Source of the DNA: Chiloscyllium plagiosum
Lineage: Eukaryota
Assembly: GCF_004010195.1 (NCBI RefSeq)
Contig: NC_057719.1
Coordinates: forward strand, 12,239,084 to 12,303,083
Reading direction: 5' to 3'
DNA length: 64,000 nt
The position numbers were made by a program, and so were the translations under genes. Positions 6,371-61,974 of this stretch are shown one piece after another. The notes below the pieces were generated by a model that had not been told where the DNA came from, did no database searches, and worked only from the letters and a program-made list of their open reading frames with translations. How positions within the stretch are numbered: position 1 is the stretch's first letter; every line of letters starts with the position of its first letter.

Positions 6371-6585
6371 GTCGGGTTTTTGTTTGGTTTGCGTTTGCAT
6401 TTGCAAAGTGTATTGGGGGTTTTTCTATGTAAAGTTGTGTACCACAAGCTAAATTATTGCATGTTTAAAATGCATTATGTAATTGTGGTTTACTTTATTT
6501 CATTTGATTTTGATTTTCAAATCTGAAGTTTAATTTTGCCTGATTGTTGAAAAACTTGGTAATTGTGATTTTACCTTATTTTCAG

Positions 6586-6758
6586 AACATTATGCAACTA
6601 TAAAACTAAGTTTCTGCAGCAAGGATGATGGAACAGAACTTCAAGTGGAGTGCAAAGGTGTCCCAGTGGGGGAGGAAGAGCAGACGAAATCAGGGTGGCA
6701 GCGTTACTACTTTGAAGGCATTAAGCAGACTTTTGGATACAATGTACGATTGTTTTAA
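6586..6758 (+). CDS. Last coding exon of an activator of Hsp90 ATPase (Aha1 family; AHSA1/AHSA2-like)
   Basis: ttattttcag|(E)HYATIKLSFCSKDDGTELQVECKGVPVGEEEQTKSGWQRYYFEGIKQTFGYNVRLF*. Matches the recalled AHSA1 C-terminus (GWQRYYFEGIKQTFGYGARLF). Upstream exons were not found in the window, and paralog identity is uncertain. Confidence 0.92.
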
Positions 6759-7442
6759 AGGGATGATCTATCTGAAAACACCTAGCTAACTTATGAATAC
6801 CGAAAAGCTTTAGACCTTTGTTCATTTCACTGTTCTGTTCATTCTGTTAGTTAAGCTAACCTGCAACTATGACAGTGGATATTTTCAAAAGAATGTCCTT
6901 TTTTTATTCCAGCAGCCAAAAATCTCCATTCAGTTAAGTACAGCCTTAGAATGGGAAAGAATGAGAGTCAATTGTGTCAATTGTGAAATTGAGATCTGAG
7001 AATTTTCCACTATATTGTAGAGATGTGTAAAAGACTAGATCTCATCACCAGTAGTGATTGCAACATACTTTCAGTTTTCATGTTTGTGTGGATTGAGTAC
7101 ATGAAGAGCAAATGAGAGATTAAAGAAGTTTCTTGCCTTCCCTTAAGTTTTACTTCTGCTTTCTGCCCCTCCCTTTCCCCCTCCCCTCCTCCTGTCTTCC
7201 CCCACCTCTCCCACCCACCACCACACTAACTCACCTACAAACCATAAATCTCTCATTCCCTTTTACTCCATGTGCAGTATTTGCCTTCATCTGTGGTATT
7301 TGCCTACTCCCAAAATCTGAAAAGGGCACCTTTACCTTTTTGCAGCTATTCAAGAAAAGCAGATCTCAAACCAACCATCTGTTTGCATCTGATGCTTGTT
7401 CACTGATAAACTCAGTATAGCAATGTGACAGTGACAGGATCA

Positions 7443-7448
7443 AATAAA
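7443..7448 (+). promoter_or_regulatory. Candidate polyadenylation signal of the AHSA gene
   Basis: AATAAA about 690 nt after the stop, followed by a GT-rich tract (tggtttgtttttgtc, ~7478-7492). Confidence 0.5.
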
Positions 7449-9502
7449 AGCTAGGAGTGGAAGAAAAACTTTACTGATGGTTTGTTTTTGTCAAATGTAA
7501 TTATTTTAAATGACTGGTGGATTAGGTGCTTTACGTATGTTCTAATGTAATTGCTGTGTCTAGCAAAAACTTTTCAGTTGGGTTTCAGTTATGAGTTCAT
7601 TGAATTGGACCACTTACAAACTTTAAATCATATGAAAGTCCATCAAAGCAACTATTTGCAAAACTGTGAAACTTGTTTTGTTTTCATTCCATAACAGGCA
7701 ATACTGCATCTTTCAAAAGAACTGCAAGGGAGTAAATATTCAGATTTCCTAATTTAACACTTTTTTTTTCCCTCAAAAGTCAGCTTGAAATTAAAAAAAA
7801 CTAATGAGCACATAGAATAGGTAGTCTTGATACTGGCATTGGAAATGCTAGAGCAGAGCATTGTGCATGTTTTTTTTTAAATTTGCCTTTCAAATTAGAA
7901 TTATGCAGTTTGCTGAAAGTATGAGCTAATAATGACAGGCTGAAGGAAGTACAGCATTTGAAAATCTCCAGAGTACTGAGGTTCAATATTTGAAAAAAAA
8001 AACAAACCACTGAAAATAAATCTGAGTTAAGTAGGAACATAAAGCAAGAGGAATTGAGTTAGAGTGGAGGTAGGTGTGAGTGGAAAAGAGAAAACTTAAG
8101 TGAAACTCTGGAAAGAATTGCATTTTAAAATCAACTAGCAATGTCCTAGGGAAATTTGATTTCACTGTTAAATTGGATCGTGAAGAAAGAACTAGGTGCT
8201 ACAAATATAAGGTACTCAACAATGAAATTCAGAAAATTTGAGATAAATCTGTGGCATTTGAAGCAAGTAGCATCAATTCATTTTAAGGAAATCTAGGTAA
8301 ATATTAGAAAGGAATAGAAAAGTCTGGTAATACACAGCAGGTCTGACAGCGCATGTGGAGAGAAAACAAAAGTTTAGAATCAACTGGGGGAAGAAAAGTT
8401 GGATATGTAATAGTTTTAATCAAGTAGAGGATGAGTAGCAGGTGAGCTAGAGTAACAATTGCCTATGGGAGGTGGTTGGGAGAGATTAAGTGACAGCAGG
8501 GGTTATAGTGCAAAGTAATTGCACACTTGACAGTTTTCTGCACTTGGAATTTGAGTTCAGCAATTTCAGATCATCTACATGTTTTAGTTTTTAATGGCAG
8601 TTAGTAATAATATTGTCTGTTCCCTCTCTCATCAGATTTTTCTAGTATGGAGGGTAAAAGGTAACTCCCTTTTTATTTGTCTTGCCAAAATTATTCCTTT
8701 TTGTCATTTCATCTTGATTTCCACAGCAACTTTTTTGAAAAAAAGATTGCAGGTGAACAGCCATTTTATTCCAGCTGACAGCAGACTGGGGCAAATTATC
8801 CAGGAGTTGATTGCAATTCAAAACAAACAAGATATCTCCTCCTCTCCACAAATTGCTGACTATGTTGTGTGCCTTTCAACTCTGTGAGAAAGGTTTATTC
8901 AGATTGATTGGATCAAACTACAAGATTTAATTCGGGTGACTTATGCATTGTGCTTTTTGTGGAACTAAAGTTTTTTTAAGCCTGCTCTCGAGTTGGCAAC
9001 AGTGGATTGGTAGATATTTGATTAACATACTGAATTGTCTGAACAGTAGGTGTAGGTTGGTTGTCCATTCCCATGTACATATGACACTGTGACAACTAAC
9101 TTTATTAAATACAATTTCTACTTAACATTTGTGTGCCTAGATTTCCAGTGTCTTGAATGTGCCAATTAATTGTTTTAAGCATAGTTTTAGGTTTTTGGTT
9201 ACAAATTAGTGTGAAGGGAGAAGGATTCTGATAAAGGATAACATGAGAATAATCATGAGTCTTGGCTCAAAAGAATGGTGTAGATTTAACAACTTGCTGA
9301 GAATTTTTTCTCTTACCTTTATTACTTTTGCATATAACTTTACATCTATATCTTCTTGATCTTCTTCCTTTTAGAAGTAAGAGAACCTTCTCTCTCTCAA
9401 ATTTTCCCTCAGCTACTTCTCTCCAAGGAGAATAGTCCCAACAACTTCACTGAAGTTTTTCATATTTGGAATCATTCTAGTAAATATTTCTGTGCTCAAC
9501 TG

Positions 9503-10755
9503 TGGATGTAGGTTTGCTCGCTGAGCTGGAAGGTTCGTTTTCAAACATTTGACACCCTACGAGGTAACCTCTTCAGGGAACCTCTGGATGAAGCACTGGT
9601 GGTGTACCCTGCTTCCTATTTGTTTGGGTTTCTGTGGGTTGGTGGTGTCATTTTGTGGTGACATCATTTCCCATGGGGTGGTAAATGGGATCCAAGTCAG
9701 TGTTTGTTTCTAGAGTTCCGATTGGAATGTCATGCTTCTAGGAATTTGTGTGTGCCTCTGTTTGGCCTATCCTCGGATTGATGTGATGTCCCTGTTGAAG
9801 TGGTGTCCTTCCTCATCAGTATGTAAAGTGAGTGGGTTATGTCTGTAACTAGTTGACAATGTATCCTAACCACTCTCCCCTACATCAAAGACCTATCGGA
9901 AATGACTGTCAGACTATTCAGACTCCTTGGCATCGTGGTAGCCCACAAACCCACCATACATTAAAACAGCAGCTGATTAATTTGAAAGACCCTGTGAGAA
10001 ACAAAGCTCACTCACTTCAATAACTTCAGTCTGAGACAAGATCTGAAGCAAACAATCAGTATGCTTATACGCTTGCAAGTGTGGTGCCTAAAATAGACAT
10101 GCAGAGTTTAGTGAGTACATATCTTATAGGATACACTACTCCAAACCCAGTGCCCATACTATTGTTTATATCTTGCCTTATCTGGCCTTGTGCATAACAA
10201 AAGTATAAGTTTTACTTAGCCATTTCACCACATCCTGCTGTGGTCCATTGTTAGGTATATCTTCCTTCACTGCCATCGGTTTCCCTTACTTGTTTCCTCC
10301 CATTCCTCAACCATGTTGAACCTTATGACCTTTTTAATTGGGGTTTTTTTTTGTTTTAGCGGAAGTGGGAAACAGATGCTTATAACTACTGTTTGTACAA
10401 GCATATCTGGCTTAACCTACATCCTCACAGCACCTTATTTGTCTGTAACATCTACCATTGTTTACAGGCACATTTCATTCTTGTATGCACATTTTAGCTA
10501 ACACAAAAACAATTATTTCCTTCAGTTTTCATTCTTGTTGACTCAGCTCTTGGTTGAAACAATTATATACTGGTGAGTTCATTTACATTGCACAAGTAAT
10601 TATGATTGCAGAAGTAACACTACTTTACCTATACCCCACAACTCTATACAGACAACAAGCAAACTAATGTCATTGACAAAATACCTTGCAAGCACTGTAA
10701 TAAACACTACATTGGACAAACATACAGAAAACTAGCCACCAGGATACATGATGAT
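9503..10755. mobile_element. Penelope-like element remnant (terminal repeat inverted; linker and GIY-YIG on +), interrupted ~9995-10645
   Basis: TTLPYIKDLSEMTVRLFRLLGIVVAHKPT (~9870-9957) and NVIDKIPCKHCNKHYIGQTYRKLATRIH (10666-10749, GIY-YIG signature). A degenerate hammerhead core (CTGAAGA-GGTTACC..) lies on the minus strand at 9541-9578. Confidence 0.78.
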
Positions 10756-11789
10756 TACACAAAGTTCATCTTTTGTGATAATTCAAATACTGAAGCTGAC
10801 CATGTTCAAGTGCAAAAGGATCTGGATGACATCCAGAGGCAAGTAATCGTCCTACCACAAATGACAGGTTGAGACAATCTAACCACTGTCCCTTGACATT
10901 TAATGGTGTTACTGTCACTGAATTCCTCCACATCCTGGGACTTATTGACCAGAAACTGAATTAGACTCACCACATAAACACTGACAAGAGCAGTTCAGGC
11001 TAGAAATACTGCAGCAAGCAATTCTACAGTCTACATGACACAAGTGAGGAGTGATGGAATACACTATGTATAACACAGGAGAGGTGATGAGTAACCCCAC
11101 AGACAAACCTTTCACCATAGATAACTTGGGGCCAAACTCTCTGTTTCCATGTTGCATTACTGATTCCAATAGCTTTGCTTTCTTTGTGTTGCATAATTAT
11201 GCTCTATTGTTGAAGAACATCAACAGCAGCTGTCACCATAACTTTTTTTTAAAAAAGTGATCATCAAGATAATTCATTGAGACTTGAATAATGACCCATA
11301 TTCAACTCCAAAGGGCTAGCTCTGCATGTTGCTGCTCCCATACTCACCATGTTCTCTGCTCCGCCGCATAATTGCGCTGCAAACCCATGGTCACAGCAGT
11401 GCGTACCAAGCAAAAGGGGCAAAGGCCCAAGGTGAGAGATTCACTGCCCCCATGTACTGAGTGGTGCATGGTGCTGCTCATCAGATACTGCGAACTGTTT
11501 CCACTCTCCCACTGTTGCAACAAGCATAAGATATTGGGAAGCACTGTTGCTTTTTCTACTGATTTCACCGTACACCGCTTGTCACAGTAGCTGGTGGGAA
11601 ACCACTCTGCTGGGAGTTGAGAAAAACAAGACAATCTCATTGAAACAATTGTTCAGCAATATCAACTGGGGTCATAAATCAAATCTCAATGAAACATTTT
11701 GATTGATCACAATTTTATTTTTAGTTATGGTGATAGCTGTTGATCTTGAACAACTGAGCTGAATTATGCAACACAAAGAAAGCAAAGCT

Positions 11790-12730
11790 ATTGGAGTCAT
11801 ACAGTAAACACAACATGGAAACAAACCATCTGGCCCAACTTGTTTATGCTGACAGGTATCCCAAACTGAACTAGTCCTATTTGCCATTTGGTTCATAACA
11901 TTTAAGACATTTGGAAAGGTTATATGCAAAGGACAGCTATAATTGTACTTACCTCTATTATTCCTCTGGCAGCTTCCATACATACACCCCCTGTCGCCTT
12001 AAACCTATGCCCTCCAGTTCTGGACTCCAGTAGCTTTGGAACAAGACCTTAGCTATTCACCACCTCATTTTATAAACCTCCATAAGGTAACCCCTCAGCC
12101 TCCAATGCTCAAGGGGAAAAAAGTCCAAGCTTGTCCAGCTACTCCTAACCCAAACCCTCCAGTTTAACAACATCCTTCCTGCAGCACGATGACCAGCAAT
12201 GCATGCAGTATTCTATAAGTAATCTTATCAATGTCATGTGTAGCTGTAATATGACATTCCCAACACCTATACTGTGCTCTTAAGCATGCCAAACACTTCC
12301 TTCAGCACCCTGTCTATCTATGACACCACATGCAAGAAACTAAACTTGCAACCCTAGGTCCCTCTATTTAACACCACTCCCCAGGGTCCTACCATTAACA
12401 AACAAATCTTATCCTGGTTTGCCTTACCAAAATGCAACACCTTATATTTAAATAAATAAAACTCCATCTACTACTACTTGGCCCATCTGATCAAGATCTC
12501 ATTGTACTCTTAGAAAATCACCTTCACTGTCTGCTGCAAAGTTTGGTGTAATCTGCAAACTTAGTGACCAAACCTCTTACATTCTCATCCAAATCATTGT
12601 TATAAATGGTGAACATGAGTGGACATAACACACCTTGCGGCATACTGGTCGCAGGCATCCAGTCTGAATAACAACACTCTAGTACCATTATGCGTTCTAC
12701 CATCAAGCCAATTTTGTGTCCAATTAGCTA
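11790..12730 (-). mobile_element. CR1 LINE RT and 3' fragment
   Basis: PQGVLCPLMFTIYNNDLDENVRGLVTKFADYTK (RT motifs) plus CR1 3' tail. Confidence 0.85.
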
Positions 12731-13339
12731 TTATTTATACCACAGGTAGAAAGACATTAACAACAATAGCAAAACAAAGTTTTAGCATTTTTCCCCCATT
12801 TTTTTACAGATACTTAATTCCAGAGAAATTTCACTGCTGTCATAACTCACTGACTTCCTATTTAATTTGGGTCATGGAGATTTGAATACAATTCCTTTGA
12901 GTACACAGACATGAAACTTTAACAATTTTGGTGGCCTAACACTTGAGGATTCCAAAGTCTCCTTGCGTAAACACTTCAGAAACTAAAACAGTTCAATTCT
13001 CATGACCGGGGTCACTGCCTAAGGACAAGGAATAGGGTATTAAGACTGAGATGAGAAATCTCTTCACCTAGAGAGTGGTGAGCCTGTGGATTTCTCTACC
13101 ACAGAAAGCAGCTGAGGCCAAAACATTGAGTGTCCTAAAGAAGGAGTTAAATGTAGTTTTTAAAGGCAAAATGTTTGGGGAGAAAGCAAGAACAGCATAT
13201 AATCAGCCATTATCACATTGTATGATGGAGCAGGCCCAAATGGCTGCCTATTTCTCGGTTTCATCAAATTGTCAGATCTGTAACTATTCTGAGAATGAGA
13301 TGGGATTGCCTTAAGTTTACAAGGGGTCGGTGGGGATAC

Positions 13340-13465
13340 TAGGAGAAAGTGAGGACTGCAGATGCTGGAGTACCAGAGTTGAAGAATGTGGTGCTGGAAA
13401 AACACAGCAGGCCAGGCAGCATCCGAGGAGCAGGAGAATCGATGTTTCGGGCATAAGCCCTTCAC
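13340..13465 (-). mobile_element. Penelope terminal-repeat fragment with truncated hammerhead core
   Basis: Same family as 4093-4579. Minus strand reads TGAAGGGCTTATGCCCGAAACATC. Confidence 0.75.
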
Positions 13466-14329
13466 CTCCACAAACAATTCCAACCAGAAAGGCACTAATA
13501 AAATGTACAGCTTTCACCAGTTTTGCTTCAGTGATCATTTCTATTAGGAAATGTTACTAATGTTCTTAACTTTGATTAATTTTTTTTTAAAAAACCAAGG
13601 TTTTTGCAAGTTGTGTTCACACACGCTTTGGCACGAGATCACTTTTGGTGTTAGGTTCATCCATTTGATGGAAGTGGAGAGCTTTCGAGCATCTCTGTTG
13701 GATTGTTCATTTTAAACTACAAATGTTCACTTTTCTCGTACCCTTGTTTCCCACTGCTTTGAAGGAGAGCAATTTCCATTGCCTCCACTTGTTAAATTTG
13801 ACAATAGTTGCAGTCATAAATTTGATCGTTTGGGAGTGAACTTTGGCTATTGAGGTAATGGCATAATATGGAGCCTAATATGGATATCTTAGAGATTGCC
13901 TTCGTACCACTGACCATTAAGGGTGAAGGATCAGGGTAAGGAAGATAGAGGGTAAAAAAAAGACACCAGAAGATAGAAACATGATTAGATGAAGACAGTG
14001 GGTACAAAGAAAAAGCAGGTTAAAGAGGAGGTTAGTGAGATCAGGACAGTTGTCAGGAGAAAGAGAGAATGGCAGATTCAGGAAAATGGAGGTGGTACTA
14101 AATTGCTCCAGTGTCACCTCGCCAGTCAAACCAATTAGTATAACTACTTAACATCCATTCAAATGGCTATGTTCACATGCTTGCAATGCATCAAAAAGTA
14201 ACTAAACCATGATAAGCCAAGATGTTAATGAAGCTTGATATTTGCCTTTGGCAAGAGTCAAAGCAAAATACTCTAAATCTGCAATAAAAATGCACTGTAC
14301 CTATTCAACAAGTCTGTGGAAAATCCCTT

Positions 14330-15580
14330 CATTCTTACAAAACAATATTAGAAATAGGAATAGGCCAGTGGAAACAATCTCCCTGCTTCTATTCTAATCA
14401 TTCCTTTCATAATTTTATGCTTCTCGAAGACTCCCCTCATTCTTCTACATTCCTATGAATATAATCCTAGTCTTCTCAATCTGTAGTGAACCTCCACTGC
14501 ACAGCAGCATGCTGCAGTTCTTCATCATTTCAAAAAATAGGCCATTTTGCTGTTATTCCCACCAAAATGGATGACCTCACATTTACCAACATTGCACTCC
14601 ATCTGCCAAGCTCTTGCCCACTTGCTTAACCTAACTGTATACTTTGCAGAATTTCAGTGTCCTCTGCACTCTTTGCTCTGGTTTCAGATTTCCTTCCCTA
14701 AAATTAAAAAGGAACCAGATGAGGTTTCACATCCATTTACAATTATGGAGTTAGCATGGAAACAGACCCTTTGGTCCAACCAGTCCATGCTGACCATAAT
14801 CCCAAACTAATCCAACCTGTTTATGCTTGGCATACATCCCTGCAAACATTTCTTATGAATGAATGTATCCAAATGTCTTTTAAATATTGTAACTGTACCC
14901 ACATCCACAATTTCTTCGAAGTTCATTCCATAGACAAACCACTCTTTATAAAATAAATGTCCCTCATGTCCATTTTAAATGTTTCTCCTCTCGCCTTAAA
15001 AATATGCCCTCTAGTCTTGAAATCTCTCACCCCAGTGAAAAAACACTTGCCATTTACCTTATCTATACCCTTTATGATTTTATAAAGCTCTTCATGGTCA
15101 CTCCTCAAACTCCTTCACTGCAGCCTTTCTTTATAACTGAAACCTCGCATACTTGGCAACATCCTTGTAAATCTCTTCTGAGGCCTCTCCAACATCATAA
15201 TATTCTTCCTATAACGGATGACCTGGCCACCATATTCCAGAACAGGCCTCACCAGTGTCCTGTACAATCTCACCATGACATTCCGAACTCCTATAATCAA
15301 AGGACTTCACATCATATTTCACTCAGAGTGAAGGGACGACCCTTTACAACTGAGATGAGCAGTTTCTTCAGGCAGAGGGTGGTTAATCTGTAGAACCTTT
15401 CTACGGAAGGTTGTGGAGACAACTCATTGAGTGTATTTAAGGCAGATAGGTTCTTCATTAGTAAGGGGATCAAGGGTTAGAGGGAGAAGGCAAAATGGGG
15501 TCAAAAAACATATCAGCCTTCAAATAGAGAAGACAAGATGAGCCGAATTATCTAATTCTGCTCCTATACCTTATGGTCTT
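14330..15580. mobile_element. Cluster of CR1 LINE 3' fragments
   Basis: LYRTLVRPVLEY..LERPQKRFTRMLP and YKIIKGIDKV remnants on the minus strand. A further 3' fragment is on + at ~15320-15580. Confidence 0.75.
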
Positions 15581-18545
15581 AAATGTTTTTAAATGAAGCT
15601 TTGTAAAGAGGCCAAAATGTCAGTGAAACCTTTCTTCCAGTCAATGTTGTGCCAACGTGTTATGGACAGTATTTGGGGTACGTAGATCAGAAACATGACA
15701 ATGAAGTAGCACTAGTTATGAAAGACAACAGGCATCAATCTTGACTCAGTGGTAGCATAAAAATCTTGCAGTGTCCTTATTACAAGCAGCGAAGGTGCCC
15801 CACTCTGACCATGTTTGAGCAAGAAGAGCTCCCTCCCCCACCCCCAAACCAACATGGTCAGCCAGTGTATGCAGTATGGACAATCTTCTCATGGAACACT
15901 GCTCTGTACAAACAGGGCTGTACCTCACATTTGAACCATGACTGCATTTCACAAAAAGCTCCTCATTTGGCACTGCAATCATGCCGTGAAAACTCAGGAA
16001 CACACAAAAAGATGACAAGAGGAGCAGTTGACTTAAGGCAGTTTTTTTTTTAATATTTTAGTCCCAGATATGGGACAGAATATTTATACATAAAAAGGTA
16101 CAATCAAGCACTCCAATTAAAGAATGCTAGCCAGTGCTTCAAAAAGAATTAAATGAAGTTCTTCACAAATCAGCATTAAAAGATCTTAGTTACAGTCAAC
16201 CAAGCAAGCTCAGTGAGGACTATACATTGTAAGTTCCACTGATCTAACTGTTTCCAAATAGAATACCAGGTATGAAAGAACATCTCTCATGCATACATAA
16301 CACTCTGTCTCTCTCACACATTCATGGATCTTTAAAATGACAGTTAAGTTTCTAATTACTACAATCGTCAGACAGTTAAAATCAGCTACAGGAATTTTTT
16401 TTTTCAAAAACATCCAGGCATCAGTATTTTCATTAAACCCAGAGATACACTTGCCAATAAACAGGGATCACTAATTGATTAGGATGGGGTAGGGATGGTT
16501 GAGAGAGAAAAAGGTAAGACTGAACATTTTCTTAAAACTGAAAAAAATGTATTAACTTGTCAAAAATGATTGCTGTCAATACATTTCCATCGCTTTTAAA
16601 AACGTTTTTTGGTTGCTATGTTTAAAAATTAATAGCTATTATAGAAATTGGTCCCTCTCTGTAGTCAGTCTACAACACACTATGCTTGAATATGCAATAA
16701 TGCTTTGACTGCAATTCTGACAAAAAAGGGAATTGTTTGAAGAGGTTCATATATTTAGGTGTTTCCCCCCTCTCCCATCCATATCTTTGGGCCCTGAAAT
16801 TTGTCCACCTTCAAATGATTAGTTTGAACATTTATTGTTAACTATGTATGTTAATGACATTAAATAACAAGTACAGAAGACAGATTATTAGTTTATGCTT
16901 TCTTATAAGGGCAGGAGTTATAGCTGAAGTACAGGATTAATTTTGAAAGATAAGTTGCTGAGAAAAAAGAAAAAAAAATCACAGAACAAATCTCATGTTG
17001 GCTGTGGAGTGGAGAGAATTCAAAATGATGAATTGTCGTTGCTCTTCATTAAGCGAGACCAGCTTCCTCACAGTGTCAGTAACTCCAAGTCAGAATCCAG
17101 AACCACCATACCACTAAACATTTTAATAAAAGCAAACAGTCCAAAAAGCATATGCTCTCTGTGTAAATATCAAGCTTCCTGAAATAGTCACTTCCTTTCA
17201 TATAGGAAAGAGAAGCTCTCCCCAGTGGATTTTGAAAAGCTGAAAACTGGCCATTCACATACCACCCAATCTTGCACAGTTATCCAGCCGTGGTTGGACT
17301 AGCCTCAAAACAGGAAAACATCAAGATCAGTTTCAATAATATTACAATTTAAAATGCATGGAGAATACTTCACATAAAACTCATTCCTCAAAGTATAAGG
17401 ATGGTATAAAAAGAGTATTGAAAATAGTGTAATTAAAGCAATCACAGAAGGGTTTAATTCGCCCACAAAAGGACCATGTTGTATTTATCCAGAATAATGG
17501 AGAGGAAAACTGATCTTCTGGTCTCGGTAGAGTGCTAACATAAGCTTTCCAATTATCCACAAGCTTTGGAATCAGAATGAGTTTCTTGTTCTTTACAATT
17601 AAGGACATAAATAATGTGTAGATCTGCAACTAATAAATGTAGGATTCATAGATCAGCCTCTTTGTCTAATTGTCATGCACTTGTAAAACAAAATACCCAT
17701 TACTCTGACAGCTGCAAACAAACCCCAGCTCAATTTCATACTATTACTTCGTTCCACATTAAAATGACTACCTGGGGCAACTCAAAATCAAAACAATGCT
17801 CTCATTCTTGTCGCTTTGTAAGGGAGCGCAGGAAGTGGGGAGAGAATTTCCAGAAATAAACAACTGGATTTTTGTTTGGTAGAAGAAGTTTTGTCTTTGT
17901 CTTTTCATCAAAAGTGGGCACGTAAATGCATCAGGAAGCCTCACCTCTTATGCATTTGTGTAATGCATACACAGGTAGAGAAGCAGATCTCAGCAAAAAT
18001 TACCTGCTCATCTTCCCATACCCCAATGATTTAGAAACTGAAGGGAGGGTGTACCACAACTTGCCAGGCTGCTGACATGTCTGCATGCACTAATTCACAC
18101 AAGCTGGAAAAGGCTCAAAGATTTGTGCAGCTACTGTGCAAAAGCGCATTCACTTCAAAAAGAAAATGTAAAGCAGTAATGAATAATCACACTGTCTCTT
18201 CACACATCAACTCATTATATTACTGGATATGATAAAAATGACAATATCCCTGTTCTCAACAATACTCCTATTATGAACACTTAACCTTTAAAACAGAACA
18301 GAATACAATTAGAAACTAGACAGACTATATTTAATCAAAAAATGCTCAAATTTTGAACATTTTAAATACAGTCCTCTCCTGTTCAAGCCTTTTGATATGA
18401 AAACTGAAATAACAAAATGCTCACATTTATTGATTTGAATAAAGTATCAGAAGTCAAGGTCAGTTTCTGTCTTAAAAAAAATTCTGATCCATACAAATAA
18501 GAGCCAAACACTTATTATCTTCCCAATTGATAATGATGCAATGTA

Positions 18546-18671
18546 AGAAGAAGGGCTTATGCCCGAAATGTCGATTCTCCTGTTCCCTGGATGCTGCCTG
18601 ACCTGCTGCGCTTTTCCAGCAACACATTTCCAGCTCTGATCTCCAGCATCTGCAGACCTCACTTTCTCCTC
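18546..18671 (+). mobile_element. Penelope terminal-repeat fragment with 14-bp TSD
   Basis: TSD aatgatgcaatgta at 18532-18545 and 18672-18685. The insert starts inside the hammerhead core (GAAGAAGGGCTTATGCCCGAAATGTC). Confidence 0.82.
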
Positions 18672-18759
18672 AATGATGCAATGTACTCTAGCCAGTACAG
18701 TGTAAGACAGCAAAACATCTCAGACTGAGGGAGACATTAATCTTTCCGTACTCCAGAAC

Positions 18760-19060
18760 ATAAACAGAAGTTGAATCTTTTTTGTCTTGCACTCATTAAA
18801 GACAGCCAAACTTCAAATTGTCACAATTTATACCACAGGAAGAAAAGAGATCCTGATTGGCAAGGACTCTGCCTCTCCCCCAATGATAAAGCAGTAGGAA
18901 ATATTCCATGACCAATCTCAACCAGAGTGAAACTACCAAACAACCAATCAGTACCTTTTTCCTCCTGTAATACAAATTGTTGTGATCATTTACGATTTTG
19001 CATTCTTGCAGTTATGCTGATGAATGCAAGATGAAAAAGCTTCTGGAGATTCTGTTTTCA
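18760..19060. mobile_element. Old ~300-bp palindromic element with degenerate hammerhead-like ends
   Basis: Arms cacaatttataccacaggaagaaaagagatcctgattgg and ccaatcagtacctttttcctcctgtaatacaaattgttgtg. Ends are gtcttgcactcatta and CTGATGAATGCAAGATGAAAAAGCTTC (19017-19043). Confidence 0.62.
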
Positions 19061-23934: not shown

Positions 23935-24081
23935 TCAATCACACATTTCCTCTGCTATTTCGTGTGGGTTTAAGATCCCTGGAACAGTCATTTGAAGCTT
24001 TCTCTTCTCCTCCTGGGCCTGACGCAGAGCTGTTTCCCTCTCCTCCAGGAACAGGTCTGAAGTGTCTTCACCACCAAATTC
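23935..24081 (-). CDS. XPO1: XPO1 terminal coding exon, 147 nt including TGA
   Basis: ttcttgttag|[48 protein letters not shown]. Confidence 0.95.
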   Translation of the reverse strand, partial: EFGGEDTSDLFLEERETALRQAQEEKRKLQMTVPGILNPHEIAEEMCD

Positions 24082-51000: not shown

Positions 51001-54000
51001 ACAAAAACATGAACTGCAACTGCACTCACCTGATGAGGCTGCAGATCACAAATGATAGTGTTAATATTGGTCAAGATCTCATCAATGAAAGGCATCACCT
51101 CTCCTACTTGCACTTGAACAAAGTGGCGTCTGCACTTTTGGGCTATCTTAATAAATGTGTCACAAGCCATGTCCTGGACACCATCATGAGTCTCTGTAAA
51201 AAGCAATAAGGGGTGTAAAGCTCACTTTTTCTTAAAAAAAATCTTAAAATTTACATCTAAAAACCTTTCATAGGTTGAGTTGCATTTTTTAAAAAATCCA
51301 AATTTAATTTCACCGTTCTCCATAGGATATTCATTCCAGAGTTTTACATACCCTTTTTGGAGAAACGTAGTGCTCTATAAAAAAACAAACAATATTAATC
51401 CAAATTCTACCCCCCAACAGTGAAACAGTATTTTTACACTACTATTCAAAGTTTGTGAGAAGTTACACTACTATATCAGAAACATCTCCAAATAAAAAAA
51501 ACTCTACAACTGTTTAAATTTAAAATGCATTTAAGTAGAATTTGACGACAAAACTTTCTTGATTCAGCATACACTGTACCCAAAGGACATTCTCAGTCTG
51601 CATAAAGTCTAATGACTAAGCAAACTGCACAGCAATAAATAGCACCACAATGACTACAGTACACGCTGGGCTTCATGACAAGTTTCCTTACCATGCATAA
51701 ACTCAAAGAGTTTGTTCACCACTGTCTTTAGGAACTTCCAGTGAGCTCGCAGGAACCGGGGATACTGTCCCACCACGTACATAATGTTAGAGGCGATAAT
51801 AGCCTTGTTATCCTTCCCACGTTTTTGTTCACAAAGGCCCAGCAAATCCTTCAAAGTCAAAAAGGTTCAATGATAAGTAAAACGAGCAAAGTGAATCAAG
51901 CTATCACACCTTATTTTCTTTGTTCAAGTTCTCACTCAGCCCCAAATGTCTAAAGCTCTCCTTTAAAAATGGATTCAGGAGCAAAAACCTTCTCCCAGTA
52001 AGAAAGGTATCAAAAAGAATTATCAAACAAACACTCAACAACTTAAGACAGCACCTCTAACATGATTCTATGAAACATTCCAGCATGCTTCAAAGGAACA
52101 CTACAAAATAACATACACCACCAAGCATTGAAGGAGGTGCTTGGTCAAAGGGGTGGATTTTAAAGAAAGTTGCAGAAGCTGGGTGGTGGGGAAGAGGAGG
52201 AGTGGGTATCTGCTTTGGCAACGGAAGGCACAGCCAGCATCACTGCAGCAATTATTATTGGGAACACAAAAGAAGTCAGAGTGTAGATATACCGGAGGGT
52301 TGAGAGTAAGAGATTATGGGAACTCTCCACCAGCAACTGACCTTGATGACTGTGACAAGGAATCGTTTCTCATCCTCTTCATGCATTGCACCACTGATGG
52401 AACCAATAGCCCAACAAAGTGTATTCAGGTTTTTCCATGACCATTCTGTACCATTCACTTGATTGTGCAGCTTCTCAGTCATAATGCATTCTGTGTCAGC
52501 ATAGTCTAAATGTGTGAGATAGACTGAAACAGGAAAACAAAGCAGCCTTAAAAATCACAGAATCCACTTAGTGCAAATAAAGGCAATTGGACCCATCAAC
52601 TCTGTACGGACCTTCCGAAGAGCATCCCACCCGGAACCACCACCTCCCCCACCCTATCCCATTAACCCTGTATTTACCATGGACAGAGTCGAAAAGGGTG
52701 GCACTGGAATAGCACAGCATGTCAGACAGCACCCGAGGGGCAAGAGAGTCAATGTTTTGGGTAGCACATTCCTGATGAAGGGCTGATGCCTGAAATGTCG
52801 GCTCTCCTGCTCCTCGGATGCCGCCTGACCTGCTGTGCTTTTCCAGCACCACACTTTTCAACACTGACTCTCCAGCACCTGCAGTCCTCACTTTCACATA
52901 TTACCATGGCCTACCCACCGAATTTGCACATCTTTGGACTGTGTAAGGAAAGCCATGCAGACATGGGCAGCATGTGCAAACTCCACATGGCCACCCCAGA
53001 TTGGAATCAAATCTATGTCCTTGGCGCTGTGAGGCACCTGTGCTAACCACTATACCACCATACTGGCCTTATTTAGGGGTTTCAGACATGGACGTGTTGT
53101 TTTGGAAGAACTTGCCAACAACAAAAGGAGAGATGGCAACATTCTTTCAAGTCAGTATGGCAAATTGCTTGCAGGCTGTGGTATTTCCATCTATTTGCCA
53201 CCACTTGTCATTCTAGACAGAAAAGGTCATGGTTTTCAATGCGCTTTCACAAGAAGCCTTGATGAATTTCTGCAGTGCATATTGTAAATCGTGCACACTG
53301 CCGTACAGGTGGGAAGAGGAAGTGGACATTCGGAGATGTAGGGTCAATTAAGCAAGCTGCTTTGCCGGGTTAGTGTCAGTCTTCAGGTGCTGTTGGAGCT
53401 ACGCTCATCCAGGCAACTGGGGAGTATTCCATCACACTCCTGATTTGTGCCTTGTAGATAGCAGACAAGCTGTAGGGAGTTAGGAGGTGAGGTAGTCATG
53501 ACAAGATTCCTAGTCTCTGACCTGCTCTTGTAACCACAGTAATAATATGGCTGGTCCAGTTCAGTTTCTCAAATGAAAGATGTTAAAAAAAAAAACATGA
53601 AAACTACAAATTCATTATGCCTGTAAGCATCTGACAAGAGAAAACATTTGGTCTGGGTTTGTTGGAAATGGAAACAAACATTAAAATCCTTTTTCAGAGC
53701 TGATCAAAACATCTCTCCTTTAGTTAGTTTATGCTACAATTGAAAGAAACATCTGTAAATTCATTCCCAGGCCTTCTCTAATCTTTAGAGAAAAAAGCAC
53801 CACCATCCAAATTGCAATGAGAGTGGCCATTTTGCCCAAAACATACATACATCCCAAAAGAAAATGTCAGCAGTATGTTTATAAAAATATATTATTCATG
53901 AGTCATGAGTTTGGTGGCTAGGCCAGCATTTATTGTCCATTCTGAACTCAAGGTCTGGGTAGTAGTCAACTTCTTGAACCACTGGTGTAGGTACTGTTGC

Positions 54001-57000: not shown

Positions 57001-60000
57001 TTCCTCTTGTGGCACTTCTGCTTGTTTTAATAGTGACTTCAAACCCATGTTCTCTTGTCTGAGTTCCCTTTGTGACCGAGAACACTTTCTCTGTTTACAC
57101 ATGCAGAAAATTGAACACCTGTGAAATCTCAACCTCCTTTCCACAATGGAAAACAGTCCAAACTTCACCAATCCATCTTTATAACCGAAGCTTCTCATCT
57201 CTGGAACTATTCTTAAGGATCTATTCTGCATTCTTTTCAAATCCTTAAGCACATGGCACCCGGATCTGGATGCAATAGTCCAGCTGTGGCTGAACCAGTA
57301 TTTCATTCAAGTTCAATGTGACCTCTTTATTCTGATACTCCATGCTGCTATAATAAAGCCAAGGTTATTGTATGCTTTATTCATCACTCTCTCGACCTGT
57401 CCTGCCACCTTTACTGACTTATGCACCCAAGTCTGTCTGATCGTACACCCCCTTTAGAGTTGTACCTTTATTTTATCTGGTTTCTCCATGTTCTTCCTTC
57501 CAAAATATAATCAATTCATGTTTCCCCACATACAATTTCATCTAATACCCAGCCACTCTAAAGATAATTTATAAAAACCTCATGCTTACCAAGTGTCTCT
57601 CTCATTGTTTTGTATAGATTGATGGAGTCAGTGTCCTTCATGAATTCCCGAACAACTTCTCCCTGCTCATTCTCCACAACAAGCACCTCTTCTGGTTTTG
57701 CCATTCGACTAATCATGATAAGCCTCACCTGAACAAGAAAAACAAAAATTTATTTGTTTATTAAGTAGAAGCCGAGAGACAATTAATTGTGAGGACATTT
57801 CAAAACAAGTTTGTACGTGTGGCTGCTATGGTACATGCCTTAGATAAATTTGGAAAACCACAACCTATTTCCCAGAGTGTGTTTATAAAATGGGCTTAAA
57901 GTTAATACGACTTAAAATTTGCATCATCAAAAATGTGATATTGATATCAGGGTTTTAGCTTTGAATGACTGGTTAGAACATGGTGCTGGTATCAGGTCAA
58001 CTGACTGCTTTCCTGGCGTCATACAGCTCTGGTAGATTGATGGGGGAAAGCATCAGTGATGTGAGGGTACTTCTGAAAGATGAGGAAAGGCTTACTAAGT
58101 CTGGATTTCACCTTGGTTGTAAAAAAATGATTCTTTACCATTTAAAAAAGTTACTTCATGGTAAGGACTTGCTGAATAAAGATGATTAATCAAACATCCA
58201 GCAGAGGCAGTAGTCATTAGTGAATGCAGTCAGTAATGCAGGCTGATTTCATCTGAACGACCCTGTGTAACGCAAACTGACTGAGTGAAGGACATGCAAA
58301 TTAGTAAGAAGTGAATCAAAAACAACAAACAACTAATAAATCAGATGTATGGTCAGCCAATCATGTGTACACCTTCTTGGTGATGGTTAGGAGCCAAGGA
58401 ACAGGTCATCCATGCAGTGTATGGAGAATGGAGGTCCGTAAAGAGGAAAAAAAACTTCCATAGCACCTTCCACATTCACACCGAGAAATGCCATTATTCT
58501 AAATGTAAAGGTAAGATGAAGTGATAACATTTAAGTTGAAAGTGTTGTATGTGATATTAACAAATGCTAAGCCCACTGGGCAGAGGATCAAGAGCAAAGA
58601 TTCCATAGGATTTTTAAACATTAAAACGACAGATTAACGCACTATTAGCATCCATTAACCAATAATTTGGAAACACCAAGAACATCCATGTCAAGCAGCA
58701 CCCAAGCACACAATGTTATATTTCACAGGAGTATACAAGCTGGGAGGATTCAACACAAGCAATTAGCCTAATCTAGACTGGTTAATACACACCTTTGACA
58801 GCACTGGTAGGTAGATCTGTCTCCGAGGTGGGACGTCACTGTGAGGATTGCCCAGAGCAGGAGATGCACTAATAGAAAAGGGATTTTCACGGTAAAGCTC
58901 TCCTGCCAGATGATTCCAGTATTCCAAACAGATCTTAAAAATTTCTATCTCTTCCACTTCTGATACAAGAATCATATAGTGTAGGCCCTAGGATAATCAA
59001 AACAGACAAAACAAAGTTAGTAACACTCATCTGCTTGGGTTTAATAGTTATGAAGATTTCAGTGCAAGAGATAGGAGTGGAAATAAGCCATTTAGCCCAC
59101 TGAGTCTGTTCCCCCAATGAGATCATTGCTGCGTTGATGATCAACCAACAATGAATACAATTCAAGTGTTTGTTTGAGAGCTACTTTGAAATTTCTTGAA
59201 ATGGTTTTGTAATGGTCTCATTTTAGATTCCAGCATTTTCACTGCCACTATGCTCACTATACCAATGTTATTGCTATCTGGTTGGCACAGTACTATGCAC
59301 CAGTTAATAATCATGGAAGCCTCCATCACACCAAACCATTTACTATGTTACAAATGCTTGTGCAGCGATATCTTCCTTTATTAAATCATCTCAGCTTTCT
59401 CATTAAGGTCACCGAACCAACTGCCTAAAGTCCCAGGAGCTCAACCACACCTGTAAATCTGCAATGCCACTGAGAGTTACTGGAAGGAAGGGAAAAGGCA
59501 GAGATGCCACACAGCAATGAAGTTACTGGAGGACAGGATGGAGACATTATCACAGCATTCCACCTTTGAAGTATTTAGCGTTCATACTTACATCCAAGAG
59601 TGCCTCTCTGAGCTCCATTGTCCTTTCTACTAAGGTGCCATGCTCCTTCAAGAAAGTACATAAGAAAAGACTCAGATTCTGGATGAAATTCTGTTCATCA
59701 TCCTTCCCATTTGCATATGCAAGGCGAATGTTAGTATTCACAGGTAGCATCTGAAAAAGGAAAGAGAGGTGAGAGATTGACTCCACATAGGAGCATAATA
59801 CAACCAAATCCACAATAAAATCTGCACGACACAATTCAGTTTCCAAAGTAAATGAGCACTAAAGTAGAAATAGTGAAGAACTAGGTGACTGAATAATAAG
59901 GAAAATTAATGAAGCTCGCTACTGATAGTGCCAAATGCAATTACTGAGAAATTACAAACAAGCATTGACTGACAGTATCATTCAAGTCCAGGTCCTCTGG

Positions 60001-60282
60001 AACCAAAGTCTCACCAGCTATGCTGAGGCTTGGCCTGTGCATAGTACGTTCAGCAAATTAAGTATTGAATGCCGTACGATTCTGATGGTTATTCAATCCA
60101 ACGATGAATACAAGTCACAAATACTAACAAATTCTGCAACAATTTCAACCTACCTGTTTGAGCTGAATAAGTGTTAATGTAAACAACGAGATGAACTGTT
60201 CATCATATTGACTGACACCAACGCCAGCAATCTCTGTCAAACATTTCAATGTGACATTTCGAAACATGGGCACATTCAGAAA
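23935..60282 (-). CDS. XPO1: Exportin-1 (CRM1)-like, 5'-partial spliced CDS: join(complement) 60154-60282, 59592-59750, 58793-58987, 57590-57728, 52342-52523, 51692-51848, 51030-51193, 49149-49283, 46526-46709, 44741-44847, 41818-42012, 37927-38095, 34560-34694, 32951-33113, 31131-31227, 23935-24081
   Basis: 16 exons totalling 2457 nt (818 aa plus stop), all with GT-AG junctions and a continuous frame. Translation runs from [10 protein letters not shown] to ...[11 protein letters not shown] and follows recalled human XPO1 residues 254-1071. Upstream exons are not found in the window. Confidence 0.96.
25687..26183 (+). mobile_element. tRNA-derived SINE (HE1-like) with tandemly duplicated 3' half
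   Basis: tRNA-like head (ggcatggtgattcagtggttagcactgctgcctcacagcgccagggaccgggg..caattcc), LINE-like tail gggcctgtttccacactgta and (TAATC)n. The 3' half is repeated from ~25994. Confidence 0.88.
26959..29590 (-). mobile_element. Younger CR1 LINE (endonuclease, RT and 3' UTR) nested in antisense orientation
   Basis: ORFs 28987-29517 ([31 protein letters not shown]), 27951-28712 ([34 protein letters not shown]) and 27376-27777 (FINDLD..KFADDTK). Confidence 0.92.
28652..28727 (-). mobile_element. Penelope terminal-repeat fragment inside the nested CR1
   Basis: ggatcagtggtgctggaagagcacagcaattcaggcagcatccgaggacaggcaaaatcgacgtttcggg matches 4096-4164. Confidence 0.85.
31131..31227 (-). CDS. XPO1: XPO1 exon 24 equivalent, 97 nt
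   Basis: gccacag|(D)[32 protein letters not shown]|gtaaga. Confidence 0.95.
31870..32230 (-). mobile_element. CR1 LINE 3' fragment
   Basis: [30 protein letters not shown] plus the 3' tail. Confidence 0.85.
32505..32645 (-). mobile_element. Penelope terminal-repeat fragment with degenerate hammerhead (32607-32644)
   Basis: Minus strand reads gagCTGAGGAaaggtcactgggcccGAAATGTtaactc. Confidence 0.65.
32951..33113 (-). CDS. XPO1: XPO1 exon 23 equivalent, 163 nt
   Basis: tttccag|[54 protein letters not shown]|gtgagt. Confidence 0.94.
34560..34694 (-). CDS. XPO1: XPO1 exon 22 equivalent, 135 nt
   Basis: ttttgcag|[45 protein letters not shown]|gtaaat. Confidence 0.95.
34885..35465 (+). mobile_element. 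Young CR1 LINE 3' end
   Basis: [32 protein letters not shown]; ends ..gctgtacatctctatgactctatg. Confidence 0.9.
36194..36395. mobile_element. Palindromic Penelope-derived element (second family) inserted in CR1
   Basis: Inverted arms agttaaaaatcacacaacaccaggttatagtccaa..tagctt and aagctagtg..ttggactataacctggtg..tttttaact. Approximate TSD tcaagaaag / tcaaaaaag. Confidence 0.82.
36311..36345 (+). ncRNA. Intact minimal type I hammerhead ribozyme motif (PLE-type)
   Basis: CAC-CTGATGA-a-GGAGC agc GCTCC-GAA-AGCT-A-GTG: helix I CAC/GTG, 5-bp helix II, palindromic AGCT in place of helix III, CUA cleavage triplet. Confidence 0.78.
37863..37902 (+). repeat. (GGAA)n microsatellite
   Basis: aaggaaggaaggaaggaaggaaggaaggatggaaggaaag, about 25 nt from an XPO1 donor site. 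Confidence 0.9.
37927..38095 (-). CDS. XPO1: XPO1 exon 21 equivalent, 169 nt
   Basis: ctctccag|[56 protein letters not shown]|gtatgc. Confidence 0.95.
39720..39950 (+). mobile_element. Decayed HE1-like SINE
   Basis: ggcaacatggtggctcagtacttagcattgctgcctca head with a SINE body and tail. Confidence 0.75.
40550..41070 (+). pseudogene. PIF/Harbinger (HARBI1-like DDE) transposase fossil
   Basis: Ordered, frameshifted motifs: GSFQGTTGD (40553), VQCAINNT (40735, cf. VQGAIDCTH), [11 protein letters not shown] (40792-), SCHVSYIL (~40879, cf. GSCHDSYIL), [14 protein letters not shown] (41024). Confidence 0.7.
41818..42012 (-). CDS. XPO1: XPO1 exon 20 equivalent, 195 nt
   Basis: tttgtcag|[65 protein letters not shown]|gtaatt. 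Confidence 0.95.
43020..43350 (+). mobile_element. Full-length HE1-like tRNA-derived SINE
   Basis: ggcacggtggctcagtggttagcactgctgcctcacagcaccagggacccaggttcaattccagcc (A/B boxes) through gggcctgttttcacactg..ttctattct. Confidence 0.9.
44035..44606 (-). mobile_element. CR1 LINE 3' fragment
   Basis: [30 protein letters not shown] plus the 3' tail. Confidence 0.88.
44741..44847 (-). CDS. XPO1: XPO1 exon 19 equivalent, 107 nt
   Basis: catttag|[36 protein letters not shown]|gtgagt. Confidence 0.95.
45128..45430 (+). mobile_element. HE1-like SINE
   Basis: agcacggtggctcag..ctgggttcgattccagcc head; tail ttctatgattcta. Confidence 0.85.
46526..46709 (-). CDS. XPO1: XPO1 exon 18 equivalent, 184 nt
   Basis: ttttacaaag|[61 protein letters not shown]|gtaact. 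Confidence 0.94.
47338..47714 (-). mobile_element. Penelope fragment with hammerhead-like core, inserted in a decayed LINE
   Basis: Approximate TSD aga(g/a)tcttagtgag near 47324-47337 and 47711-47724. Core on the minus strand at 47381-47414: CTGATGACGGGCTTTTGGCCGAAACGTT. Poly-G at ~47564-47584. Confidence 0.75.
47653..47775. repeat. Near-perfect 61-bp-arm inverted repeat (hairpin)
   Basis: ctacagagagtaaatctttctatatacaacacgacaatctccaggtgtggtctcacgaaga-a-tcttagtgagaccacacctagagattgtcgtgttgcatatagaaagatttactctctgtag. Confidence 0.92.
48120..48375 (+). mobile_element. HE1-like SINE with (TAATC)n tail
   Basis: SINE body and tail gggcctgtttccacactgtaagtaatctaatctaatct. Confidence 0.85.
48329..48557 (+). 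repeat. Tandem duplication (117 + 112 bp)
   Basis: gaagggcctg...gctgaatgacaga at 48329-48445 and 48446-48557, differing only by one TAATC unit. Confidence 0.92.
49149..49283 (-). CDS. XPO1: XPO1 exon 17 equivalent, 135 nt
   Basis: tttcag|[45 protein letters not shown]|gtaagt. Confidence 0.95.
49708..49970 (+). mobile_element. HE1-like SINE inserted in a CR1 ORF1 remnant (~49400-50470)
   Basis: The tRNA-like head directly follows gtgggtaccaatgacat (VGTND esterase motif). Confidence 0.78.
51030..51193 (-). CDS. XPO1: XPO1 exon 16 equivalent, 164 nt
   Basis: tttacag|[55 protein letters not shown]|gtgagt. Confidence 0.96.
51692..51848 (-). CDS. XPO1: XPO1 exon 15 equivalent (NES-binding groove), 157 nt
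   Basis: tttgaag|[52 protein letters not shown]|gtaagg. The Cys528 equivalent is at 51831-51833 and the Glu571 equivalent at 51702-51704. Confidence 0.96.
52342..52523 (-). CDS. XPO1: XPO1 exon 14 equivalent, 182 nt
   Basis: tttcag|[60 protein letters not shown]|gtcagt. Confidence 0.95.
52565..53062 (-). mobile_element. SINE interrupted by a palindromic Penelope fragment (52683-52900)
   Basis: TSD ttaccatgg at 52674-52682 and 52901-52909. Degenerate core CTGATGAAGGGCTGATGCCTGAAATGTC at 52772-52799 (+). Confidence 0.8.
54821..55088. mobile_element. Palindromic Penelope-derived element (115-bp arms, 3-nt loop)
   Basis: Arms 54856-54970 and 54974-55088 are near-perfect reverse complements, each with a hammerhead core. 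Confidence 0.88.
54993..55028 (+). ncRNA. Minimal type I hammerhead ribozyme motif (PLE-type)
   Basis: attc-CTGATGA-a-GGGC tttt GCCC-GAA-ACGT-C-gatt. The mirror copy (54916-54951, minus) has G12 mutated to A. Confidence 0.68.
55244..55839. mobile_element. Tc1/mariner (Tigger/pogo-like) MITE
   Basis: TIRs cagaggaacctcgattatccga / tcggataacagaggttcctctg, flanked by TA on both sides (55242-55243, 55840-55841). No transposase. Confidence 0.88.
56500..57550 (-). mobile_element. Old LINE 3' fragments
   Basis: cataggaacaagaataggccatttggaccttcaagcc tail and decayed RT C-terminal remnants. Confidence 0.65.
57590..57728 (-). CDS. XPO1: XPO1 exon 13 equivalent (acidic loop), 139 nt
   Basis: ttgttcag|[46 protein letters not shown]|gtaagc. 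Confidence 0.95.
58793..58987 (-). CDS. XPO1: XPO1 exon 12 equivalent, 195 nt
   Basis: cctag|[65 protein letters not shown]|gtgtgt. Confidence 0.94.
59592..59750 (-). CDS. XPO1: XPO1 exon 11 equivalent, 159 nt
   Basis: tttcag|[53 protein letters not shown]|gtaagt. Confidence 0.95.
60154..60282 (-). CDS. XPO1: XPO1 exon (human exon 10 equivalent), 129 nt
   Basis: tttgcttag|[43 protein letters not shown]|gtaggt. Confidence 0.95.
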
Positions 60283-60874
60283 CTAAGCAAAAAGAAAATG
60301 CAAAAGATTAAGTTAAAATAGACAACTTATAGTGAAGACTTATATCTACATGCAAGCTTGACAATGAAAGCACTTCTGGTCAAAATTTTCCATTCATTTT
60401 TATGTGTCTAATTTCTCTGTACAAATCTTCTAAAATTTACACAAGAGCTTTGTATAGTTATAATAAATTTTGTATGGTAAACATTAGAGAAGCAAACTAA
60501 ACAAGACATGAAAGCATCGTTCCTGAGGTTTTAATGTTGTTAACGTTACATTAATGTTTACAAGTCCCTCAGTATCAAGTTGGTTGAAAAATTCTCTGGT
60601 TACTCCTGAGTGAATGCACAAACATTAACAGCAGCATTATTTAAAAAAAAAAACACCTTATCAATGGTGCAGGAAAATGCAGTTTGCGGCTTGCTATTGT
60701 GTGCACATCAAAACTTATTAAAGTTCAAATTAACACAAAGATTTTCTAAATACCCTGCACAAATTTGAATCAGCTTCCCACTGGTGGAGACTACCGATAA
60801 CTATAATCACTGTAAGTGATAACTATAGCATGAAGAATCTATACTTGCATTTCTCATGAAACAATCTCAATTGA

Positions 60875-61245
60875 CTCATAGAATCTCTACAGTGTGTAAA
60901 CAGGCCCTTCAGTACAACAAGTCCACACAGACCCTCTGAAGAGTAATCCACCCAGACACATTCCCCCCTACCCTATCACTCTATATTTATCCATGACTAC
61001 TGTACCTAACCTACACATCCCTGAATGCTATGGGCAATTTAGAATTGTGAAAACACTTAACCCGCACATCTCTGGACTGTGGGAGGAAACCGGAGCACCC
61101 AGAGGAAACCCACACAGACATGGGGAGAATGTGCAAACTCCACACAGACAGATACACAGACAGACAGTCACCTGAGACTGGAATCAAACCCGCACCCCTG
61201 GCACTTGTGAGGCAGCAGTGCTAAACATTGAGCCACCGTGCTGTC
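60875..61245 (-). mobile_element. HE1-like SINE
   Basis: Reverse complement of the tRNA-like head (..gtgaggcagcagtgctaaacattgagccaccgtgctg) and of the tail. Confidence 0.88.
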
Positions 61246-61962: not shown

Positions 61963-61974
61963 TATAGAAGACAA

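Follow-up and report, generated by a model that had tools for sequence, protein, structure and literature searches.

The XPO1 gene of the window

XPO1 (exportin-1, also called CRM1) is the main nuclear export receptor and a drug target. The window analysed here is a stretch of 64,000 nucleotides from Chiloscyllium plagiosum (NC_057719.1, positions 12,239,084 to 12,303,083), which contains 16 exons of an XPO1 gene and the last coding exon of an AHSA gene. The XPO1 type found in the window is referred to as XPO1-B and the canonical type as XPO1-A. XPO1-B is a second XPO1 gene that separated from XPO1-A before sharks and bony vertebrates diverged, and it probably derives from the first vertebrate whole-genome duplication (1R).

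XPO1-B lies on the minus strand and runs from 60282 to 23935. All 16 exons are of the GT-AG type, with an AG acceptor at every exon and a GT donor at all 15 internal ones, and the joined exons (2457 nt) encode 818 amino acids and a stop codon without internal stops. The N-terminal ~249 amino acids lie outside the window, beyond its end, and tblastn with a full-length relative as the query found no further XPO1 exon in 60283-64000. The window exons match PF18777 and PF08767 of Pfam, the Callorhinchus XPO1-B ortholog contains all six domains of the CRM1 set (IBN_N, Xpo1, CRM1 repeats, and CRM1_C), and the product matches the exportin-1 of solved structures. The original prediction for this DNA, made from the sequence alone, was that an intact XPO1 converges on an AHSA last exon about 17 kb away; the frame is indeed intact over the 16 exons, and the two genes are arranged tail-to-tail with their stops ~17.2 kb apart. 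The exons, all of which were defined by exon joining (additional evidence in parentheses), are as follows; the exon numbers (10-25) are those used in the original prediction.

60154..60282, minus strand: XPO1-B exon 10, the first exon inside the window
59592..59750, minus strand: exon 11, with a stretch differing from human
58793..58987, minus strand: exon 12, HEAT8/9 loop, one codon deleted (derived state; alignment)
57590..57728, minus strand: exon 13, HEAT9 acidic loop (residue comparison)
52342..52523, minus strand: exon 14, C at position 474 (alignment)
51692..51848, minus strand: exon 15, groove for the nuclear export signal (NES) with Cys528 and Glu571 (residue comparison)
51030..51193, minus strand: exon 16
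49149..49283, minus strand: exon 17
46526..46709, minus strand: exon 18
44741..44847, minus strand: exon 19
41818..42012, minus strand: exon 20, CRM1_C domain (Pfam)
37927..38095, minus strand: exon 21
34560..34694, minus strand: exon 22
32951..33113, minus strand: exon 23, with an ancestral codon that canonical XPO1 lacks (alignment)
31131..31227, minus strand: exon 24
23935..24081, minus strand: exon 25, the last coding exon, with the stop codon and the acidic tail EEMCD

Two types of XPO1 in cartilaginous fishes

Both types are present in Scyliorhinus torazame: the window product is 99.4% identical to GCB66686 and 89.5% identical to GCB59995 of this species, and GCB59995 shares 96.1-96.6% identity with bird, rodent, and mormyrid XPO1. 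The window product is identical to Stegostoma XP_048394506 at 816 of 818 residues and is 96.7% identical to the chimaera copy, the latter value indicating long purifying selection on XPO1-B. With exon 12, three clusters matched at 95-97% (manta ray, chimaera, and zebra shark) and the other 117 of the 120 listed matched at ≤83%; members of the B type in these clusters also came from whale shark, two catsharks, and bamboo shark. XPO1-B is therefore present in sharks, ray, and chimaera.

Among 306 XPO1-family rows (counted after the removal of five FAM161B-like rows, with the B-derived sites defined using two B rows), 14 have the B-derived residue at 90% or more of the B-derived sites that they cover, and the next best row at 26%. 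Twelve of the 14 are named and come from seven chondrichthyan species, two are unnamed fragments, and none is from a named bony vertebrate. The coelacanth, sturgeon, teleost, amphibian, and mammalian rows shown have A-derived residues. Retention in cartilaginous fishes, as originally proposed, was thus confirmed, whereas the proposed loss in mammals seems too narrow, because the named bony-vertebrate rows sampled include no XPO1-B. The gene was likely lost in all bony vertebrates.

A clownfish candidate (P0347) was rejected as a B type; its ‘closer to B’ score came from split alignments, and it is 93% identical to canonical XPO1. In zebra shark, an extra B-type copy was found (P0003; Stegostoma XP_048405127, labelled ‘LOW QUALITY’, 619 aa) on a contig of 63,455,393 bases, apart from the intact XPO1-B. 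Over 370 residues it differs from the window product at 16, compared with 2 of 818 for the intact gene, and it looks like a recent truncated duplicate that is decaying.

Age of the split between XPO1-A and XPO1-B

In a tree of 40 XPO1 rows (quick search, LG+C20), the six XPO1-B rows formed one clade and the 17 shark XPO1-A and bony-vertebrate rows another, both with a support of 100 in the Shimodaira-Hasegawa-like approximate likelihood ratio test (SH-aLRT). The six cyclostome rows formed a third clade (SH-aLRT 99). These three make up a vertebrate clade (SH-aLRT 99). The B branch lies outside the clade of shark XPO1-A and bony-vertebrate XPO1 and is thus not grouped with the 2p15-type orthologs.

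In approximately unbiased (AU) tests on 22 rows, the grouping of B with shark XPO1-A (p=7e-5) and that of B with bony fishes (p=8e-5) were both rejected, the former result also rejecting a shark-only duplication. All three placements of B relative to the cyclostomes were accepted. Together, the trees and AU tests place the split before the divergence of sharks and bony vertebrates and after that of tunicates and amphioxus. The XPO1 protein by itself is compatible with either 1R or the second genome duplication (2R).

These results bear on a rival explanation, namely that the window gene is the sole XPO1 of its genome and a tetrapod-type ortholog from which USP34 has moved away, or else that it is a shark-only duplicate or pseudogene. 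The occurrence of both copies is known from S. torazame and not from the species of the window, which leaves this explanation some room. It is nevertheless extremely improbable, as both types coexist in S. torazame, both of the corresponding topologies failed the AU test at p<1e-4, an open frame runs through all 16 exons, and the neighbour is AHSA1 (see below). The outcome named in advance as contradicting a second XPO1 was a single XPO1 in the genome that groups with tetrapod XPO1, with USP34 relocated; S. torazame has two XPO1 genes, and the tree places the window gene outside the canonical clade. The proposal of a second XPO1 is supported by the S. torazame pair, the trees, the AU tests, and conserved linkage.

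The AHSA1 gene and the tail-to-tail gap

The region facing XPO1-B contains the following two features.

6586..6758, plus strand: last coding exon of AHSA1 (shark ‘ahsa1b’), with the stop at 6756-6758 (Pfam AHSA1 E=1.4e-7, identity, tree)
6759..23934, no strand: tail-to-tail gap of 17.2 kb, with both 3' untranslated regions and repeat fragments (Pfam scan; consecutive models in two species)

No other AHSA exon was found in the window; the earlier ones precede the last exon outside it. The exon is identical at 56 of 56 residues to 6 of the 10 shark AHSA1 records compared, these six all being from carpet sharks, and the gene corresponds to that named ahsa1b or AHSA1-like by NCBI in sharks. In a tree of 26 AHSA rows it grouped with bony-vertebrate AHSA1 (support 98.3/96), and its grouping with AHSA2 was rejected (AU p=0.003). 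The original prediction of an AHSA gene was therefore correct in the family; the gene is AHSA1 rather than the AHSA2 of the human arrangement with which it was compared. A constraint uniting bony-vertebrate AHSA1 in a single clade was marginally rejected (p=0.049), since the sharks sit beside the lobe-fins in the unconstrained tree; this result has no effect on the choice between AHSA1 and AHSA2. The named AHSA rows held no chondrichthyan AHSA2, although the searches were not designed to find AHSA2.

USP34 had been reported as unrecognisable between the two genes, and this was borne out. On the minus strand, 6756-23934 contains 127 stop-free frames that are 35 aa or longer; none of them matched the USP/UCH families or reached any Pfam cut-off, in a scan that left the plus strand and shorter frames aside, and three of three known exons used as controls were recognised as members of their families. 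Small decayed remnants of USP34 would be compatible with such a scan. An intact USP34, which we take to comprise ~3,500 aa in ~80 exons, cannot plausibly fit in a 17.2-kb gap. USP34 may have been lost from the XPO1-B segment, as originally proposed, or may instead have entered the XPO1-A segment at a later time. In two further species, the AHSA1 and XPO1-B models are also consecutive, with no USP34 between them (Chiloscyllium punctatum, chiPu_0012799/0012800; Callorhinchus, EukProt P020113/P020114).

Synteny and origin by genome duplication

In all four species for which both genes could be taken from one matching assembly, XPO1-B and AHSA1 are located on contigs of identical size (Callorhinchus, 24,037,023; Mobula, 254,321,047; Stegostoma, 96,416,223; and C. 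punctatum, 1,419,401). S. torazame has XPO1-A and ahsa1b on different contigs, of 426 Mb and 406 Mb, respectively. For comparison, we take human BCL11A, AHSA2P, USP34, and XPO1 to be located at 2p15-16, with the order AHSA2P-USP34-XPO1, and human AHSA1, SPTLC2, and BCL11B at 14q.

Two numbered Xpo1 genes are listed for the skate in the supplement of PMC10115646, the gene names in its table being taken here as those of the bait positions. Xpo1-2 is located at 68.5 Mb of Leri_8C, within 1 Mb of Bcl11a, and Xpo1-1 at 12.9 Mb of Leri_9C, with Sptlc2 at a distance of 0.5 Mb and Bcl11b at 3.5 Mb (PMC10115646 supplement). For linkage group A1, Table 3 of that paper gives LER9 as 1-alpha and places ‘LER5 or LER8’ under the 2 columns, where labels 1 and 2 denote the 1R split (PMC10115646). 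Paired neighbours are thus found on both segments, AHSA1 standing beside XPO1-B and Bcl11a and Bcl11b of the skate lying on LER8 and LER9. The skate positions, the 1 and 2 labels, and the presumed human locations together indicate a 1R origin.

A scenario consistent with these data is that an ancestral AHSA-XPO1 segment was doubled at 1R. One product would have become AHSA1 with XPO1-B on a chromosome like human 14q, and the other AHSA2 with USP34 and XPO1 on a chromosome like human 2p. Cartilaginous fishes would have kept both XPO1 genes, and bony vertebrates would have lost XPO1-B early. We assign a probability of roughly 0.78 to the whole of this reading, in which XPO1-B is a 1R duplicate that acts as an ordinary CRM1 exportin and was kept mainly for dose or divided expression. 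The proposal that the gene is an ohnolog is supported in that the split predates the divergence of sharks and bony vertebrates and the skate chromosome assignments fit genome duplication.

A possibility that preserves the gene and its function is a split at 2R, or a late resolution of 1R copies after the cyclostomes had branched off. It gains from the best JTT tree, which makes XPO1-A and XPO1-B sisters with the cyclostomes outside, as 2R predicts, on a short branch (0.008). The lamprey copies also do not pair one-to-one with XPO1-A and XPO1-B, and the B stem is about twice as long as the A stem (0.073 vs 0.038), as expected of a faster beta copy. We nevertheless regard this as unlikely, as the other two placements of B were not rejected (p=0.44 and 0.10) and LER9 is listed as 1-alpha while LER8 appears under the ‘2’ columns alone (PMC10115646, Table 3). 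Less probable still is that the AHSA-XPO1 pair was copied early in vertebrate evolution by a small segmental duplication, with no genome doubling involved, and later moved to another chromosome. Just two genes in the window are open to testing this, which favours such an event, but in skate a Bcl11 paralog is found within ~1-3.5 Mb of each Xpo1 gene (Bcl11a on chromosome 8 and Bcl11b on chromosome 9; PMC10115646 supplement), a pattern that fits whole-chromosome doubling.

Several points weigh against a 1R origin with subsequent loss in bony vertebrates. The protein tree gives no date relative to the cyclostomes, and one-to-one pairing of the two lamprey copies with XPO1-A and XPO1-B was rejected (p=0.012 and 0.003). 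The assignment of LER8 is tentative in the skate table (PMC10115646), and skate Xpo1-1 was equated with XPO1-B by position and not by sequence. The AHSA tree contained just two AHSA2 rows, both incomplete mammalian models. The whale shark B fragment comes from a 35-kb contig, whereas AHSA1 of this species is on one of 94 Mb, so linkage is unsupported there. The absence of XPO1-B from bony vertebrates rests on 15 members each from clusters of 1040, 680, 229, and 205 members; one B sequence sat hidden in the cluster of 680, and the named rows included no XPO1 of gar, bichir, or lungfish.

FAM161B-like proteins and a model of 1931 aa occur in a lamprey exportin-1-like cluster (P0065), suggesting that the lamprey XPO1 of this cluster adjoins a FAM161 gene. 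Human XPO1 presumably adjoins FAM161A. The lamprey AHSA gene is on a third contig.

Sequence differences and predicted function

XPO1-B is ~91% identical to rodent and bird XPO1 and matches human and mouse XPO1 (PDB 3GB8 and 3GJX) over the full length, with the same NES groove, acidic loop, and tail. It differs from them in being a separate gene beside AHSA1, with 75 fixed A/B differences, short N-terminal deletions, and one codon lost in the HEAT8/9 loop. Only one A/B difference falls in residues 510-600 (I547V, the invertebrate state), and all 25 checked positions between 514 and 575, a list that we take to represent the NES groove, are equal to those of rodent and primate XPO1, including Cys528, Lys568, and Glu571. 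One difference (D436E) is found in 422-448, and the acidic tail ends with EEMCD.

The differences are concentrated elsewhere: 27 of the 75 are in residues 280-421, and the densest 100 aa contain 23, above the expectation from outgroup variability (p=0.002). B-derived changes alone are not significantly clustered (p=0.28) and A-derived changes are weakly clustered (p=0.035), which argues that both copies changed in 280-421 and rejects neofunctionalisation of XPO1-B as the sole cause. Six differences are in 393-400, including the codon deletion.

The differences from human XPO1 quoted in the original prediction are real, with two corrections. The one-codon deletion in exon 12 is real and derived, and C474 gives DTECIM in place of DTERIM. 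The exon 11 stretch of XPO1-B differs from human KEHDQLIEKRLNLRETLM, but part of this change occurred on the human side, as mouse has KEHGQ...LREALM. Exon 23 does have one residue more than canonical XPO1, but it is not an insertion: all 3 cyclostome rows and 7 of the 9 invertebrate rows have the residue, and none of the 10 canonical gnathostome rows does, so the codon is the ancestral state.

In CRM1, RanGTP moves the HEAT9 acidic loop, the HEAT 11/12 groove opens, and leucine-rich signals bind near Cys528, while the acidic tail modulates the groove (PMC4588050). Loop 389-400 of human CRM1 is a cargo-binding site outside the groove (PMC12410093), and the dimer interface at which R474 lies varies among mammals (PMC5914484). 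XPO1-B would thus be expected to act as an ordinary CRM1 exportin, in which RanGTP displaces the acidic loop and the HEAT 11/12 groove binds leucine-rich export signals, and it may differ from XPO1-A in handling those cargoes that contact the outer surface of HEAT 7-9 as well.

In the fin RNA data of the skate, Xpo1-1 has a baseMean of 1070 (PMC10115646 supplement). Two assembled contigs of ~1.5 kb encode residues 1-249 of XPO1-B, from which we infer spliced transcripts. A search of sequencing runs with the last exon and its 3' flank listed no RNA data set, a result that argues neither for nor against expression. Long conservation, skate fin expression, and the spliced-length contigs indicate that XPO1-B is a working gene. 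Skate Xpo1-1 (LE12080) also appears in the fin comparison with a log2 fold change of -1.14 (adjusted p value, padj, 0.0014; Table 5 of PMC10115646), which hints that the copy at the B locus is regionally regulated.

XPO1-B is probably a largely redundant exportin that was kept for dose or divided expression. A possible but doubtful alternative is that XPO1-A and XPO1-B have split export cargoes for ~500 million years, with the same groove and a differing HEAT 7-9 surface that includes the 389-400 loop. If this were true, sharks would be a natural two-receptor system for studying how CRM1 chooses cargo by contacts beyond the groove, and in bony vertebrates two receptors would have been merged, leaving a single dosage-sensitive gene. 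For the human 2p15p16.1 deletion, XPO1 is reportedly a candidate dosage-sensitive gene. With a shared groove and a differing outer surface, the A/B pair is well suited to comparing how cargo is selected at sites other than the groove.

Relation to known genes

XPO1-B is on record as annotation: the RefSeq ‘exportin-1-like’ entries (Stegostoma, Callorhinchus, Mobula, Rhincodon, and Scyliorhinus) and, as judged by position, skate ‘Xpo1-1’ are the same gene under automatic labels only, with no origin, synteny, or function attached in the records examined, and the skate has two numbered Xpo1 genes. Shark ‘exportin-1-like’ is therefore a paralog, which calls for caution in ortholog sets and RNA sequencing counts. 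Teleosts (xpo1a and xpo1b) and lampreys also have two XPO1 genes, but these are independent pairs: in the tree, all 8 teleost rows belong to the canonical clade, and the 6 cyclostome rows make up a clade apart.

Literature searches, which relied on listings and left most subscription journals outside, found no paper on a chondrichthyan XPO1 paralog. No match to XPO1 was found in 12 of the 24 files of the PMC8455134 supplement or in all but one scanned file of the PMC10927551 supplement. Nineteen ohnologs that bony fishes lost but chondrichthyans retain have been counted, with wnt6b and cspg5 among those named (PMC10115646). These share the pattern of differential loss, but the named examples are unlike XPO1, a housekeeping transport receptor; XPO1 may already be among the 19 listed. 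The general retention pattern is thus published, and the surprise is moderate. If the 1R origin is correct, the intact second XPO1 from chimaera to shark would be a core transport gene that survived in duplicate since early vertebrate genome doubling, and XPO1-B would tie AHSA1 and AHSA2 to one ancestral AHSA-XPO1 segment.

Minor features of the window

An inverted, decayed copy of part of exon 21 is present in intron 22.

34370..34483, plus strand: inverted copy spanning the acceptor of exon 21 and its first 100 nt, within intron 22 (86/114 nt identical, E=1e-17)

The copy is 75% identical to exon 21 and is located 77 nt into the intron. The duplex between exon 21 and the copy has a predicted energy of -125.6 kcal/mol, compared with -43.6 +/- 5.3 for 200 shuffles, as is expected for any inverted copy. 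Pairing of exon 21 with the copy in the pre-mRNA could loop out exon 22. The B models of S. torazame and C. punctatum lack exon 22, which a prediction gap alone may explain.

In total, 13,892 of the 64,000 bases are repeated within the window. Decayed frames resembling the reverse transcriptase and endonuclease of long interspersed elements were seen by eye at 1-6400, 26500-30500, 34800-37600, and other sites, and there are an (AAGG)9.5 run at 37863-37900 and a tandem pair of 112 bases at 48329-48558.

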